A stretch of 6,524 bases of DNA, from IMG/VR virus record IMGVR_UViG_2703718859_000008, one strand, 5' to 3'. The stretch comes from a virus (lineage: Duplodnaviria; Heunggongvirae; Uroviricota; Caudoviricetes). The position numbers and the translations under genes were made by a program. Below, one piece after another: positions 2,587-6,524 of this stretch; within the stretch, counting starts at the first letter, position 1, and each line of letters starts with the position of its first letter. The notes beneath the pieces were generated by a model. That model was not told the DNA's origin and ran no database searches. It was given only the letters and a program-made list of their open reading frames with translations.

Positions 2587-2818
2587 AACCCCCCCCATTT
2601 TCACAATCAGCAATCAGGATAGCTTTGGCCTCATTCAGCGCCATATCAGCACTAAGTTGCATAACCGCCAGCGAATGAGGGACGAAAGTCCCGGCATATT
2701 CTGTTTCACTGGTGGCGTGCTTATGTGCCCTGTCCGCGATAACAGAAATATCAATCAGCGCGTGCATCAGCGTTTTGATGGCTTCGGCGGCTGCGTCCGG
2801 TGTGGTTTTATTGTGCAT
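2579..2818 (-). CDS. hypothetical small protein (79 aa, MHNKTTPDAAAEAIKTLMHALIDISVIADRAHK...)
   Basis: C-terminal part of the 228-aa track ORF. The portion upstream of the ATG at 2818..2816 is Pro/Arg/Leu-rich and looks like off-frame translation. AGGGGGA Shine-Dalgarno about 6 nt upstream of this ATG. Confidence 0.45.
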   Translation of the reverse strand: MHNKTTPDAAAEAIKTLMHALIDISVIADRAHKHATSETEYAGTFVPHSLAVMQLSADMALNEAKAILIADCENGGGYA

Positions 2819-3368
2819 AGGTTTCCCCCTGGCGAATACGGGCGGCAAATACAGCAACACAACCGGACGGGCAACGGCTACGCGCTTCGCGTTCCGTCCA
2901 GGCGGTGACGTGGATGATTTGATGGTCTGACGCGCCAAAGATGATAAAGCGCCAGAGAAAGGCGGTTTGAGAATGTACAAGGGTAGGGATAGTAGCCATG
3001 TTGGCAGCCTCCTCAGTGTGGTTAAGATAACCGCCACCGGAAACGCCAATTTCGCTGGTGGCGGACTGTACAGGGTTGGCGTAACCGGACACTGAAGAAA
3101 CCGGCGCGGATTGCTCCGCCCCCGTACAGCCCACCATTGATAAGGTGTGACTATGCGGCACAAAAAAACACGCGGGGCGCGTGTTATGCGCTTCAGTTTT
3201 GCCCAGGACGCCAATCCCGGCACCCGTTTTATGAGGTGCGCGGGAATCATAGCTATTTTCGACACTGGCGATCAACTGGTTTTTTTCTCCGATATTCAGG
3301 GCCAGAAAACGCCACACAAAGGCCGTTTGTGTGTGTACAAGGTGTGGTATATGATTTACGGCAACCAT
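2808..3368 (-). CDS. hypothetical protein with two paralogous small modules (IPxLVHxQTAFxWRF motif twice) joined by a Gly/Ser/Ala-rich linker; possible in-frame internal start at 2999
   Basis: 186-aa ORF, first gene after the repeat-bearing intergenic region. GAGGAG Shine-Dalgarno 6 nt upstream of ATG 3368. A second in-frame ATG at 2999..2997 is preceded by GAGGAGG and begins the second copy of the motif. Differences between copies fall largely at third codon positions, consistent with protein-level conservation. Confidence 0.5.
   Translation of the reverse strand: MVAVNHIPHLVHTQTAFVWRFLALNIGEKNQLIASVENSYDSRAPHKTGAGIGVLGKTEAHNTRPACFFVPHSHTLSMVGCTGAEQSAPVSSVSGYANPVQSATSEIGVSGGGYLNHTEEAANMATIPTLVHSQTAFLWRFIIFGASDHQIIHVTAWTEREARSRCPSGCVAVFAARIRQGETYAQ
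3161..3184 (-). terminator. intrinsic-terminator-like hairpin plus T7 tract inside the coding region of the 186-aa ORF
   Basis: On the minus strand, 8-bp stem AACACGCG/CGCGTGTT with a 3-nt loop, followed by a run of T (plus-strand A7 at 3161-3167). In frame it encodes NTRPACFF. Confidence 0.3.
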
Positions 3369-3439: not shown

Positions 3440-3545
3440 GTACATGAGATACACATAATCATCATGTGAGATACACGTTACATTGATGTGATATACATTT
3501 CAAGTTTTTTATATCTCACTTTACTGTATAGTGATATACACACAA
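3440..3545. promoter_or_regulatory. divergent promoter/operator region with phased GTGA(G/T)ATACAC repeats
   Basis: Direct copies at about 3445-3455 (TGAGATACACA), 3466-3476 (GTGAGATACAC), 3488-3498 (GTGATATACAT) and 3531-3543 (GTGATATACACAC), spaced about 21-22 bp or twice that. One inverted copy at 3511-3520 (ATATCTCACT). Lies between the start of the minus-strand operon (3368) and the plus-strand 100-aa gene (3563); AT-rich. Confidence 0.5.
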
Positions 3546-3562
3546 TAAACTGGTGATTAATT

Positions 3563-3865
3563 ATGTCCGTATACAAAAACGCAAAATCTCAAATGACAAC
3601 GCTCAGAGTCCCTCACGATGTCATGCAAGGCATGGAATCCGTTAAGCTGGACGGCGAGAGCAATGCAGGATTTATCGTAACCGCCATGCGCGGAGAAATA
3701 GCACGCCGCCAGGCAGAAGGCAGCGGAGAAAATCCCCTTGTGTCTTCACTGGATGCTCTGGCTAAGGTCGAACAAATCGGCATCAAAGCAGCGGAAGAAA
3801 TCGGGCAACTTGTCACCGTTGCACGCGAAGAACTCCAGCGTCGCAAGGCCAAAGAAGCGGAATAA
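3563..3865 (+). CDS. small putative DNA-binding regulator (100 aa; possible ribbon-helix-helix-like N-terminus), function unconfirmed
   Basis: Only convincing plus-strand ORF. GGTGA about 8 nt upstream of the ATG. N-terminal MTTLRVPHDV segment followed by predicted helices resembles a beta-strand-then-helix DNA-binding fold. Charged helical C-terminus. Followed by a plus-strand terminator. Confidence 0.5.
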   Translation: MSVYKNAKSQMTTLRVPHDVMQGMESVKLDGESNAGFIVTAMRGEIARRQAEGSGENPLVSSLDALAKVEQIGIKAAEEIGQLVTVAREELQRRKAKEAE

Positions 3866-3943
3866 TCCACCAGCAAACCACCACACTGATCACATTGCCC
3901 ACCAGCCAGCAAATCGCTATGATGTTCGGGCTTATGTTTAGTG

Positions 3944-3972
3944 TTTTCCCATTGGCGACCGCCCCCGGTCGC
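3944..3972 (+). terminator. rho-independent terminator for the 100-aa gene
   Basis: Stem GGCGACC (3944-3950), loop GCCCCC, stem GGTCGCC (3957-3963), followed by TTTGTTTTAT. Located between convergent genes (100-aa gene on plus, alpA-like gene on minus). Confidence 0.55.
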
Positions 3973-4000
3973 CTTTGTTTTATGTGTCATATGCTCCCCT

Positions 4001-4225
4001 TTACGCTGCCTTACCTGAATTAATGCGATCCCGGCTTTTAACCCATTCCATAACCTCGGACAGCAGCCAACCTACAGAACGACCGCCCAGATTAAGGCGT
4101 GACGGAAATCGCCCTTTTTTCTCCAGTTCGTAGCGTGTAGTACGACATACTCCAGTTAACTTACGACATTCATCCTCACGGATTACGCGATCTGATAGTG
4201 ATTGAAATTGTGTATTTTGATTCAT
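4001..4225 (-). CDS. alpA: AlpA-family (Phage_AlpA / excisionase-like HTH) transcriptional regulator
   Basis: 74-aa ORF. The segment CRKLTGVCRTTRYELEKKGRFPSRLNLGGRSVGWLLSEVMEWVKSR matches the conserved AlpA pattern (HTH, FP, LGxRSVGW, EW..R) as recalled from memory. Position near a P4-type integrase is typical. Confidence 0.8.
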   Translation of the reverse strand: MNQNTQFQSLSDRVIREDECRKLTGVCRTTRYELEKKGRFPSRLNLGGRSVGWLLSEVMEWVKSRDRINSGKAA

Positions 4226-4260
4226 AAAAAAACGTCCTCGAACGTTGCCGAACGAGGACG
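4226..4260 (-). terminator. intrinsic terminator after the int/264-aa transcript; hairpin also sequesters the alpA Shine-Dalgarno
   Basis: Minus strand reads CGTCCTCG-TTCGGCAACGTT-CGAGGACG followed by TTTTTTT and then immediately the alpA ATG. The inner part can extend the stem around a GCAA tetraloop. The only Shine-Dalgarno-like sequence for alpA (GAGGA, about 9 nt upstream) is the 3' arm of the stem. Confidence 0.55.
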
Positions 4261-4287
4261 ATTCTAGACGGTGGTAAAACGCCGTTT

Positions 4288-4320
4288 GTGTGATATCACA
4301 CTATCGGTACGTGATATCAC
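4288..4320. promoter_or_regulatory. pair of palindromic operator-like sites (GTGTGATATCACAC and GTGATATCAC)
   Basis: Perfect 14-bp palindrome at 4288-4301 and perfect 10-bp palindrome at 4311-4320, centres about 21 bp apart. The second overlaps the stop codon of the 264-aa gene. Core resembles the repeats at 3445-3543. Confidence 0.5.
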
Positions 4321-5111
4321 TTTTGACGTTTCGGAACGTCACCAATATCACGCCCCAAATATTTCTGCCATGTCTGCCTGTGAGTGCTGGGTAGCTCAAC
4401 CCCTCTTTGCGCAGCGATAACCTCTATCATTTCTGCAATTTTGGTTACTGGTGTCTCCTCCAAATCCACATCCTGCATCTCAGGAATCAGTTTTATGAGT
4501 GCAGGTATTATCTCGGCTTTTTTAGCTATGGTTTTCGGAGATTCTCTATCACCTCCGCCATATACAGGTTTTGCCGCATAATCAAAATTCGAAAGTTCAT
4601 TTTCGAAAACGACTAATCTTTCCTCCGGAATAAACAACCCCCAAATTCCAGCTAAATATAGCTTTTTGTAATGTGCTTTTATGGTGTAAAGATGTTGTGG
4701 TTTGACGTCAACAGCATTGTGCGGACCTGATAATTCAACATCCACAAGATACTGCGACGGAATTGCAAAAAAACCCTTTAAATAATTTGCATACCAACCT
4801 GGCAGTCTGAATATCCCTGTGTCGGTATCCTCAACATAATCATCATTGTAATGAAGATAAGATATCTTATACATATCACTATCTATTACATTTCGTTCTT
4901 TTATCTGTTCAACATAATAACTTTCGCTATCATCTTCAAAAATCACTCTAGCAGAGCACTTATTCTCACTTATTAATAAGTCGTTTTCACCAATATATGC
5001 ACATATTTCAAGTCTATTGGTTGCCCCAAGATGTAGAATATCATCCACCGTGCAGCCGAGTTTTTTTGCTGCCATAGGCAAAGTATAATATACACGAGGA
5101 AAATCTTTCAT
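4317..5111 (-). CDS. uncharacterised 264-aa protein with N-terminal HTH-like segment (excisionase/AlpA-like HTH_17 pattern) and unknown C-terminal domain; AT-rich cargo gene
   Basis: AAGGTGG Shine-Dalgarno 6-7 nt upstream. ATG overlaps the integrase stop (ATGA). N-terminal YYTLPMAAKKLGCTVDDILHLGATNRLEI resembles a helix-turn-helix. Region about 4400-5100 is visibly more AT-rich than the rest of the window. Confidence 0.7.
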   Translation of the reverse strand: MKDFPRVYYTLPMAAKKLGCTVDDILHLGATNRLEICAYIGENDLLISENKCSARVIFEDDSESYYVEQIKERNVIDSDMYKISYLHYNDDYVEDTDTGIFRLPGWYANYLKGFFAIPSQYLVDVELSGPHNAVDVKPQHLYTIKAHYKKLYLAGIWGLFIPEERLVVFENELSNFDYAAKPVYGGGDRESPKTIAKKAEIIPALIKLIPEMQDVDLEETPVTKIAEMIEVIAAQRGVELPSTHRQTWQKYLGRDIGDVPKRQK

Positions 5112-6328
5112 TTAGCCACCTTCAGCATAACAATATTTTCATGATTTCCAGCCAGCACATCGAGACGCTCAACCCATAGATTCAGAGCGTCCCGTTTCGC
5201 CTGTAAATAGCGTGAATGGTTATAGGTTTTTTGCTGACCGGGCATCTGATGCGCTGTGATGTGCTCCACGATATGCGGATCGATACCTAAATCGTTCAGC
5301 ATCGTTGTAAACGTGTGGCGAAAGTCATGCAGCGTCCAGTGTTCCTGGTTAAGCCGCTTATGCGCATTTCGCCCATATTGCGCTACCGTGGTATCTTTTT
5401 TCAGTTCTCCGAGCAATAACCCTGTATGTCGGTTCTGCTCCACCAGCTTCTGAATGAACGGCAAAATGCCATCGGGGATTGGCCTGAATATCGTTACCTT
5501 CGTTTTGCTGTGCTCTTTTGGCACTGTCCACAACATTTCTTTCAGATCCCATTCTTTGATCTCTGAAAGTCTGACCTCTGCCGTTCTGCACCCGAACACA
5601 ATCAGCAAGCGCATTAACGCGCTGTAGTAAGGCGCGAACACATCACCATCGATAGCGCGTAAAATTTCCTTTAATTCGCTGTTACTGTGCACCCTCTCGC
5701 GAATTTCTGCTCTCTTACCCACATCGCTGACGATCAAATCGTCCAGGGCATTACTGAACGCGTAGCGCCTCCTGCGGCAGAACTTTAGCGCCTGTTTGCA
5801 GGTTTGCATGACGTGCCCTGCTGCTACTGGTGCTTTTTTTCGTACACGGTCAAAACATGCGATCCACTGCCTTGTATCACATTTATCAAGAGGAATTGCC
5901 CCTATATGGCAAATGATGTGCTTATCCATACGTTGCACCAGCTTTATGTAGTCTTTGCGGTTATCCTTCGCATATTCATCCAGCCAGTAGTTAATCGCCT
6001 CCTTCACCGTAACGGGTTTTAGCGCTTCCTGTACTGTGGAGCACAACTCATAACGGGGGTTTTTACCCTCAGCCAGCCATGCCCGGCACTGTGCGCGTTT
6101 TTCCCTTGCAGCTTTCAGCGACAATTCAGGGTAAGCCCCCAGCTTTAACCGCTCTGCGGCAACCTCACGCCCTCCCGTTCGGTACCGGAAATACCAGGTT
6201 AATTTGCCGCCCTTTGAGTGTTTAATCTCCAGCCCGCCCCCGTCGGAGTAAAAACGCTCTTTTTCTGCCTGGACAGCCACCAATTTTTTTAACGTTGAAT
6301 CGCTCAGTTTGTTTAGTGCCTTTCCCAC
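5108..6328 (-). CDS. int: tyrosine recombinase / P4-type phage integrase (N-terminal arm-binding DUF4102-like domain)
   Basis: C-terminal catalytic motifs HDFRHTFTTMLNDLGIDPHIVEHITAH and a downstream Tyr. N-terminal GGGLEIKHSKGGKLTWYFRYR matches the arm-binding domain of P4-family integrases. Track ORF runs to 6439, but its first 37 codons are Cys/Val/Leu-rich and start on an unsupported GTG. The in-frame GTG at 6328..6326 is preceded by AAAGAGGA and begins ...GKALNKLSDSTLKK, typical of this family. Confidence 0.85.
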   Translation of the reverse strand: MGKALNKLSDSTLKKLVAVQAEKERFYSDGGGLEIKHSKGGKLTWYFRYRTGGREVAAERLKLGAYPELSLKAAREKRAQCRAWLAEGKNPRYELCSTVQEALKPVTVKEAINYWLDEYAKDNRKDYIKLVQRMDKHIICHIGAIPLDKCDTRQWIACFDRVRKKAPVAAGHVMQTCKQALKFCRRRRYAFSNALDDLIVSDVGKRAEIRERVHSNSELKEILRAIDGDVFAPYYSALMRLLIVFGCRTAEVRLSEIKEWDLKEMLWTVPKEHSKTKVTIFRPIPDGILPFIQKLVEQNRHTGLLLGELKKDTTVAQYGRNAHKRLNQEHWTLHDFRHTFTTMLNDLGIDPHIVEHITAHQMPGQQKTYNHSRYLQAKRDALNLWVERLDVLAGNHENIVMLKVAK

Positions 6329-6339
6329 TATCAGATCCT

Positions 6340-6524
6340 CTTTCCTGTCCTCCAACCTCAAAAAACTGACCACACAACTGACCACACATTTCGTTGAAGC
6401 TCTACGAACAACGACGAACAACAACAAACAAGAAAACACAATAATTCAATACATATCAAACACATACACAAACAACCACGAACACCCCCGAACCACAAAA
6501 AACACTAAATGAGAAAATACGGGT
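6340..6524. repeat. strand-biased AC-rich tract with short tandem repeats upstream of int (possible promoter / arm-site / att-proximal region)
   Basis: Plus strand is almost devoid of G and T over about 180 bp. Tandem ACTGACCACACA x2 at 6365-6388 and CGAACAAC x2 at 6405-6422. Immediately 5' of the integrase start. Confidence 0.35.

Follow-up and report, generated by a model that had tools for sequence, protein, structure and literature searches.

The stretch of viral DNA analysed here (IMG/VR record IMGVR_UViG_2703718859_000008; 6,524 nt, hereafter the window) carries two short palindromes at positions 4288-4320, in front of the gene alpA, and the present work deals with these two sites and with their possible role in the control of that gene. 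Pfam, PHROG and NCBIfam scans and the near-identical annotated island of Escherichia coli S19-141 (L001; L numbers designate the loci compared) identify the window as the left end of an E. coli capsid-forming phage-inducible chromosomal island (cf-PICI), which is inserted beside rcnR. The island is organized in the order int, X, alpA, ylcI and then the replication genes, X being a working name for the 264-aa gene that lies between int and alpA. All genes of the window except ylcI are on the minus strand, which is the direction of transcription of int, X and alpA. Beyond the part equivalent to the window, L001 continues with capsid, protease, portal, connector, HNH and terminase genes. An earlier note on this DNA had linked alpA to excision control; this agrees with the role of AlpA in excision, to which has to be added that in PICIs alpA is also the master activator of induction (PMC6092414). 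[quoted passage not shown]

Both sites are exact and perfect palindromes, GTGTGATATCACAC with its centre at 4294.5 and GTGATATCAC with its centre at 4315.5, which gives a centre-to-centre distance of 21 bp. The letters of the window thus confirm the pair as the earlier note had described it, including the overlap of the second site with the end of the 264-aa gene, since the TGA stop of X (4319-4317, minus strand) falls inside this palindrome. The exact 10-mer GTGATATCAC has two copies in the window and none elsewhere in it, for a chance expectation of 0.01 copies, and none of 200 dinucleotide-preserving shuffles contained two. When up to two mismatches were allowed, still just these two copies were recovered against 2.5 expected, which indicates that the signal resides in the exactness and the adjacency of the two copies. 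A motif scan detected one pair per island, with no other copy in the 20 kb of L001 or in the other loci. The 14-bp extension of the proximal site, GTGTGATATCACAC, is a property of the E. coli group only.

To follow the pair across lineages, loci were gathered from annotated E. coli genomes, from a protein-guided scan of species-representative genomes (four loci) and from an exact-pattern scan of IMG/VR, the last of which provided the lineage diversity. Eleven independent lineages with X were obtained, corresponding to two E. coli groups, Erwinia endophytica, Kosakonia cowanii, Buttiauxella massiliensis, an uncultured Enterobacterales genome and five lineages of viral contigs. A GTGAwwTCAC pair was present in all 11, with X being merely 31-43% identical in the most distant ones, and the centres were 21 bp apart in nine lineages and 22 bp apart in two. 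In every one of them the distal GTGAwwTCAC supplies the in-frame TGA of X, despite differing lengths of the C-terminal tail of the protein, and the flanking DNA and the tail diverge from one lineage to another while the pair stays. A gapless module of 108 nt is common to seven lineages, and the alpA ATG sits 62-64 nt past the proximal site across lineages. The proximal 10-bp core is exact in 9/11 lineages and reads GTGATTTCAC in two, a weaker TTGATATCGC being found in L010 (Kosakonia). Considering both sites, 19 of 22 are perfect dyads, the three non-palindromic ones being GTGAAATCAC and GTGATTTCAC (twice). Variation is confined to the central two bases (AT to AA or TT), with the exception of the Kosakonia proximal TTGATATCGC; a variable centre is usual for the non-contacted middle of a dyad operator.

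Seven of the ten base pairs that could form between the two sites never vary, and their covariation is not significant, since 99 of 500 shuffles were as good. Invariant letters without covariation indicate that the sequence itself is conserved and not just its pairing, whereas the adjacent hairpin described below covaries freely (0/500). A 131-bp module was found in 66 of 5426 complete E. coli genomes, adjoined every time by the hypothetical gene; these 66 include some O157:H7, O145, O103 and O121 Shiga toxin-producing strains. Another 15 E. coli genomes match just the hairpin and the start of alpA. Taken together, a footprint of fixed geometry in 11 lineages speaks for the operator-like pair of the earlier note and for its location just upstream of the alpA leader, and we consider it very probable that the two sites are a conserved protein-binding operator pair controlling alpA.

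The leader that follows the proximal site is built of a spacer, a hexamer, a hairpin and a T-run. The spacer keeps its length (23 nt in the window and the E. coli group, 22 nt in every lineage outside E. coli), while its sequence is unalignable across lineages. When a -10 matrix, anchored on the proximal site, was scored at every offset in the 11 lineages, the sole consistently kept -10-like signal outside the palindromes was the hexamer abutting the hairpin (mean 4.3 bits, minimum 1.6, with a ±1 wobble), which reads nnnAAT across lineages. No lineage has a -35 element; ACAAAC occupies this position in the window and CCnAnn-type hexamers do so in relatives. In agreement with this, a consensus scan of both strands of 3900-4500 did not detect any sigma-70 promoter with both hexamers. 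A promoter located between the two palindromes was also considered and rejected, as no conserved -10 signal was found there. The relative L005, which lacks X, shows TTGCAC-N16-TAAGAT at the same place. The minus-strand promoter expected by the earlier note at about 4260-4330 is also our best reading, owing to the kept hexamer and the fixed geometry, with a start position that is deduced from them.

The hairpin, which has a 12-nt loop, was missed by the terminator scanner and was established by covariation: 93.4% of the cells are paired, 7/11 pairs show compensatory changes and none of 500 shuffles was as good. Its 3' arm carries the Shine-Dalgarno sequence of alpA, GAGGA (4239-4235), nine nt before the ATG, and an equivalent motif (GAGGA, GAGGG, GAGAG or AGGTGG) occurs in this arm in every lineage. 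The T-run is present in most lineages and absent from L057 and L058. Hairpin and T-run would together make an intrinsic-terminator-like element for read-through from int-X; as the T-run is not in all lineages, hiding of the ribosome-binding site may be the universal role of the hairpin and termination the common one. Rfam returned no family at gathering score, the sole match being ctRNA_p42d with 19.9 bits for a gathering score of 50. The coordinates of all these features are collected in the table.

Features of the alpA control region and neighbouring genes in the window
Feature	Position	Strand	Remarks
Distal operator, GTGATATCAC	4311..4320	.	Exact palindrome; holds the TGA of X; centre at about -61.5 of the putative alpA start
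Proximal operator	4288..4301	.	Core GTGATATCAC at 4290-4299; centre at about -40.5
Spacer, proximal core to hexamer	4267..4289	-	23 nt
TAGAAT, putative -10 of the alpA promoter	4261..4266	-	Also base of the extended hairpin stem
Hairpin	4233..4260	-	5' arm CGTCCTCG (4260-4253), 12-nt loop, 3' arm CGAGGACG (4240-4233)
T7 run	4226..4232	-	Directly abuts the alpA ATG (4225)
int, tyrosine integrase	5108..6328	-	Pfam matches; RefSeq 406-aa integrase in the near-identical L001
X, 264 aa, uncharacterised	4317..5111	-	Start overlaps int stop; excisionase/MerR-like winged-helix N-terminus; candidate reader of the palindromes
alpA, 74 aa, Phage_AlpA family	4001..4225	-	Pfam PF05930, E = 2e-16
YlcI/YnfO-like gene	3563..3865	+	Convergent with alpA
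Divergent operon		-	From the Ash/Icd-like gene to the RepA-type helicase (416-1825)

To look for the protein that may read the pair, the X, AlpA, YlcI and Int proteins of the window were compared by tblastn with all PICI-type loci, and a motif scan was performed on the same loci. The pair was found in 15/15 loci with X (31-100% identical to that of the window) and in 0/5 loci without it. The AlpA protein of L007 is 100% identical over residues 12-74 and that of L005 is 90.5% identical over its full length, and neither island has any such site; L008 (Erwinia), the AlpA of which is just 51% identical, has kept the palindromes. AlpA was rejected as the reader, given identical DNA-binding domains in islands without sites. 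YlcI was rejected by co-variation, the sites being absent from L004, which encodes a 92% identical YlcI, while five site-bearing loci gave no YlcI match in either search. Int was rejected as well, L005 having a 96% identical Int and no sites, and the sites of the window lying about 2 kb from the att end. The helper phages HK106 and HK446 do not contain any GTGAwwTCAC word, which is uninformative, as their satellite EcCIEDL933 is without the module.

The X family comprises 22 clusters, all from Enterobacterales, with 28-99% identity. Its N-terminus, which is among the best conserved parts of the family, corresponds to a winged helix like those of Xis, BldC, RdfS and AlpA. No Pfam, PHROG or PADLOC family was assigned to X, its single NCBIfam match was insignificant, no solved relatives were found by sequence and Foldseek gave no significant whole-protein fold match in PDB or BFVD. 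Because X is the sole island protein that always accompanies the sites and because it has an excisionase-like winged-helix N-terminus, it is most likely the reader of the palindromes.

On the minus strand, the order is the end of X with the distal operator, 11-12 bp (11 bp in the window), the proximal operator, the spacer, nnnAAT, the hairpin, the T-run and the alpA ATG, and we propose that this is a compact module for the control of alpA, limited to the PICIs in which X separates int from alpA. One regulator would bind as two dimers on the same face of the DNA, centred at about -40.5 and -61.5, and the bound regulator would switch on an alpA promoter devoid of a -35 element. When TAGAAT is taken as the -10, the window centres are at -40.5 and -61.5 and those of the other lineages at -39.5 and at -60.5 to -61.5; class II and class I activators have their centres near -41.5 and -61.5, respectively. 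The fixed length and free sequence of the spacer are as a constraint on the distance between activator and -10 predicts. Transcription would start at about 4254-4253, in the last bases of the hairpin 5' arm, and the resulting alpA message, lacking the anti-Shine-Dalgarno arm, would be translatable. In transcripts reading through from int-X, the full hairpin would either terminate transcription or leave alpA untranslatable.

The full statement, that of an operator pair read most likely by X and activating a -35-less promoter in a hairpin, is one to which we would give a little less than an even chance. A broader proposal appears rather doubtful, although of interest if correct: X would be a previously unrecognised transcription factor of the island which gates alpA through the GTGAwwTCAC pair, and would represent the missing link from helper-phage infection to the induction of one PICI subfamily of Gram-negative bacteria, capsid-forming islands among them, with a promoter placed in a terminator/anti-Shine-Dalgarno hairpin such that only activator-driven transcripts yield AlpA. 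The binder, the position of the promoter and the sign of the regulation are what we infer from sequence comparisons.

Several observations weigh against this activation scheme. The AAT of the hexamer pairs with the ATT that follows the stem, so that its conservation is no proof of a -10 role, and just about one lineage in two has the key A at -11. Since the 3' end of X reaches the sites, their co-occurrence with this gene may partly reflect physical linkage. For two winged-helix domains, a palindrome of 10 bp is short, and an X dimer is an assumption. The studied prototypes, EcCICFT073 and EcCIEDL933, are without X, palindromes and hairpin. Sites at -40 and -61 could also serve a repressor. 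Finally, the AA and TT centres of L008 keep its two sites mutually complementary, which also fits an RNA stem.

Repression from the same protein-bound sites, which we regard as unlikely, would imply that X or another factor silences alpA, either by blocking sigma region 4 or the C-terminal domain of the RNA polymerase alpha subunit, by covering a promoter that lies between the palindromes or overlaps them, or by acting as a roadblock against read-through from int-X, and that the helper would relieve this silencing, as with Stl in the Staphylococcus aureus pathogenicity islands (SaPIs). A weak TAnnGT is present between the sites in 7/12 sequences, and X is co-transcribed with int, as judged from the ATGA shared by the two genes, so that it is probably made in the quiescent state; moreover, no master repressor is known in Gram-negative PICIs (PMC6092414). 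However, no -10-like signal is consistently kept between the sites, which lie upstream of, and not over, the best core-promoter candidate, and their fixed 22-nt distance to the hexamer suits the geometry of activation better. A transcript starting between the sites would also carry the full hairpin, which would hide the ribosome-binding site of alpA. The reader might also come from outside the island, being a conserved host factor of Enterobacterales or a helper-phage regulator, in which case the sites would act as a helper-response element; this we find distinctly unlikely. To our knowledge, there is no E. coli regulator with a GTGAwwTCAC consensus. Arrays of the same word lie beside small ribbon-helix-helix (RHH)-like genes in unrelated phages, which indicates that phage regulators of such specificity exist, and helper phages induce alpA even without AlpA through a factor left undefined in the literature (PMC6092414; PMC11773190). 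Nevertheless, the element is absent from EcCICFT073 and EcCIEDL933, which are helper-induced PICIs without X, and among the IMG/VR enterobacterial phages the pair was not found, save for PICI-type contigs and L025.

Binding of AlpA to the palindromes, for positive autoregulation or as a Q-like antiterminator that would load there and read through the hairpin, is very unlikely in our view. It is true that AlpA activates its own promoter in EcCICFT073 (PMC6092414), that a Pseudomonas protein of the AlpA family is a processive antiterminator bypassing a downstream terminator (PMC7969949) and that a terminator-like hairpin comes after the sites. However, the presence of the sites in L007, L005 and L008 does not follow the similarity of their AlpA proteins, as seen above, and the Pseudomonas element is asymmetric and placed between -35 and -10 (PMC7969949), the corresponding spacer not being conserved here. 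A stem-loop of RNA (or a cruciform) formed at the 3' terminus of the X transcript, with the two copies as arms of a stabiliser or a terminator, also has a slim chance only. Each 10-mer is its own reverse complement and the copies can pair, the minus-strand RNA folding into an 11-bp stem (-15.2 kcal/mol, z = -3.4); the pair of L025, located after an unrelated open reading frame (ORF), precedes a T-run, and the AA/TT change of L008 amounts to one compensatory change. On the other hand, no T-run lies past the pair in the window (ACAAACGG; ACAAACGGCG after the proximal arm), the invariance of most pairs differs from the strong covariation of the hairpin 30 nt downstream, L011 breaks a central pair, and the arms of a stem need neither be palindromes nor keep one exact word across genera. 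The model of the earlier note, in which the binder of the repeats at 3445-3543 would also bind the palindromes and couple the divergent promoters to alpA, appears extremely improbable. The letters GTGATAT and the general form GTG...CAC are indeed common to both, and in this respect the core was rightly called a close variant of these repeats; the class of site is different, however, with 11-bp asymmetric GTG-N5-CAC sites in one case and a 10-bp dyad, GTG-ATAT-CAC (N4), in the other. The idea of one regulator for both regions is not supported either, because the palindromes stay the same in islands that represent at least seven types of repeat and YlcI beta-strand, and because the pair occurs where no YlcI homologue was found and is absent where YlcI is 92% identical. 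Activation through the pair, read by X, stays our preferred reading.

The divergent-region repeats appear to belong to another system. The window has five copies of the 11-bp non-palindromic GTGAkATACAC (3444-3540), and each island has a repeat of its own, always of the GTG-N5-CAC form, in 3-5 copies spaced by about 22 bp, one copy being just past the ylcI promoter's -10. In the window, L002-L006, L010, L013, L015, L024, L058 and L061, the five bases in the middle of the repeat change together with the beta-strand predicted at the N-terminus of the YlcI/YnfO-like protein (KSQxxxxR[VIFL]P). The strand QTVAAR or QTIAAR goes with GTGTTaAACAC (four loci, including Kosakonia), QSLTAR with GTGTAAGTAAC-type repeats (two loci), QMTTLR with the GTGAkATACAC of the window, and QLTTVR with TGAAACACAC in L004, the YlcI of which is otherwise 92% identical to that of the window; QQLNAR corresponds to GTGaATCGCAC, QALKAR to GTGTGGCCCAC, KKLEAR to GTGTCAGCCAC and LQVSVR to GTGAACACCAC. 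Identical strands go with identical operators across genera. Most simply, the 3445-3543 repeats would be the operators of the island's own YlcI-type regulator, and the YlcI/YnfO proteins are predicted to be island-specific RHH-like regulators of the icd/ylcI divergent promoters. An RHH fold agrees with, but is not proven by, a single-sequence AlphaFold2 model of YlcI in which the N-terminus has low confidence. No match was obtained when 50,697 phage records were searched by tblastn with the N-terminus of YlcI. A lambdoid prophage of E. coli EDL933 (L072, 25076-25270) encodes a YlcI/YnfO-family protein beside the packaging gene nohD, which indicates that helper-type phages carry relatives of the island regulator.

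The GTGATAT 7-mer has 11 copies in the window (at 957, 2054, 2350, 3488, 3531, 4290-4320, 4345 and 4873) for 0.8 expected. Four of them are the half-sites of the palindromes, two belong to YlcI operators and five are coding. The coding copies are on the minus strand, in xGT-GAT-AT(T/G) codons that specify (G/R/S)-D-(I/M), which is probably an effect of codon usage. A 12-mer, GGTAAATATCAC (minus strand GTGATATTTACC), is found twice, at 2049-2060 and 2345-2356, where it encodes GDIY in a DUF4222 gene and RDIY at the start of a 77-aa ORF; it is possibly a small duplication, or due to chance.

Other features of the neighbouring genes were noted. The stop of int and the start of X share the letters ATGA (5108-5111), which implies translational coupling of X to the integrase, and L005 has an alternative cargo gene, DUF6387, with the same kind of overlap with int. 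A GC-rich hairpin, GGCGACCGCCCCCGGTCGCC (3954-3973), is located between the convergent alpA and ylcI, has plus-strand T-runs on both flanks and looks like a terminator for ylcI, possibly a bidirectional one. The segment 3880-4193, which comprises the C-terminal 63 codons of alpA and about 120 bp downstream, is the most widely shared among E. coli islands, being present in hundreds of 884 matching genomes. Homology breaks repeatedly at about 4193, inside codon 11 of alpA, which suggests a recombination junction and a conserved function downstream of alpA, perhaps the real target of AlpA. The first gene of the leftward operon (2808-3368) encodes a 186-aa fusion of an Ash-family domain with a C-terminal Icd-like domain, in place of which RefSeq has shorter separate ORFs on the near-identical L001. 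Past the int start, in the direction of the att end, we observed short direct repeats (6360-6440 in the window, 8180-8250 in L013) that are rich in ACGAACAAC / AACTGACCACACA, and similar (G)ACGAACAAC-type repeats follow the int stop in EcCICFT073; they may be arm-type sites of the recombinase or a promoter region.

The palindromic word was also encountered outside of these islands. In L025 (2165-2195), the same 10-mer pair with the 21-bp spacing lies 30 bp past an ORF6N/antirepressor-like gene of 294 aa and is followed by GCTTTTTATTTTT; there the palindromes probably form the stem of an intrinsic terminator. The IMG/VR scan also revealed, in two unrelated phage groups, arrays of 4-8 (G)TGATATCA(C) sites with a period of about 11-12 bp. 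The contigs of one group are AT-rich and measure about 35-60 kb, those of the other are GC-rich, and small genes with an RHH-like N-terminus flank the arrays (L022 at 4960-5090, with about 40 similar IMG/VR contigs; L045 at 4860-4990, L056, L066, L038 and L065). The word is thus an operator that small phage regulators use recurrently and have recruited independently; the arrays are unrelated to the PICI module. In L016 (about 14193) and L021 (about 2041), the pair lies inside coding tandem repeats with a 21-bp period, corresponding to seven-residue repeats, and is a chance match of the pattern.

It is acknowledged as an open question how the helper turns on alpA, and with it the entire life cycle of the PICIs of Gram-negative bacteria; neither the inducer nor the alpA cis elements were defined in the 2018 study (PMC6092414), in a 2025 ISME J paper or in a cf-PICI preprint. 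Pairs of dyad operators and activator-dependent promoters are already well known; we did not find in the searchable literature the module itself, its strict tie to an uncharacterised winged-helix protein or a promoter in a hairpin before the master regulator of a PICI. For one PICI subfamily, which spans E. coli and several other Enterobacterales, the module offers a cis element that is precisely defined and can be mutated, together with a single candidate for the trans factor. Should X read the sites, the induction of such islands becomes directly testable, and a promoter inside the hairpin, if true, would be a tidy way of insulating a toxic master regulator from upstream read-through. The YlcI/YnfO family, in turn, gains a predicted role as island-specific regulator of divergent promoters.

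In its geometry, the pair resembles OR1/OR2 of lambda at PRM and the class II/class I promoters of the CRP/FNR type, with two dyads separated by about two turns of the helix and facing the same side of the DNA, of which the proximal one would abut the -35 position (about -40.5) of a putative promoter lacking a -35 element and the distal one would be near -61.5. Such a geometry predicts cooperative binding and contact with RNA polymerase. In contrast to these systems, the sites are of 10 bp, the candidate reader has a winged helix of the excisionase type instead of a lambda-type helix-turn-helix or a CRP fold, and the putative start would lie inside a terminator/anti-Shine-Dalgarno hairpin. The alpA promoters of EcCICFT073 and EcCIMP1 (PMC6092414; PMC11773190) belong to the same gene in the same kind of island, are located between int and alpA, and are helper-induced and auto-activated. 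EcCICFT073 and EcCIEDL933 differ, however, by a 62-aa AlpA and an int-alpA spacer of about 365 bp, without X, GTGATATCAC pair or hairpin, and with prototypes devoid of the module the published results on this promoter are not directly transferable. The YlcI/YnfO-linked GTG-N5-CAC operators of the same island share the GTG...CAC ends and the spacing of about 22 bp; they are 11-bp, asymmetric and island-specific sites in 3-5 copies, whereas the alpA pair is an invariant 10-bp perfect dyad. The AlpA binding element of Pseudomonas aeruginosa (PMC7969949, PMC9371919) also has an AlpA-family context, with a promoter-near element followed by an intrinsic terminator, but it consists of an asymmetric GGGACG-N5-GGTA between -35 and -10, unlike the dyads found here, which lie upstream of -35 and do not track AlpA. 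Finally, Stl of the SaPIs offers a parallel in that an island-encoded DNA-binding protein beside int would gate the lytic programme and could sense the helper. Stl is a divergently transcribed repressor, whereas X is co-directional with int and alpA and unrelated to it in sequence, and the geometry of its candidate sites points to activation.

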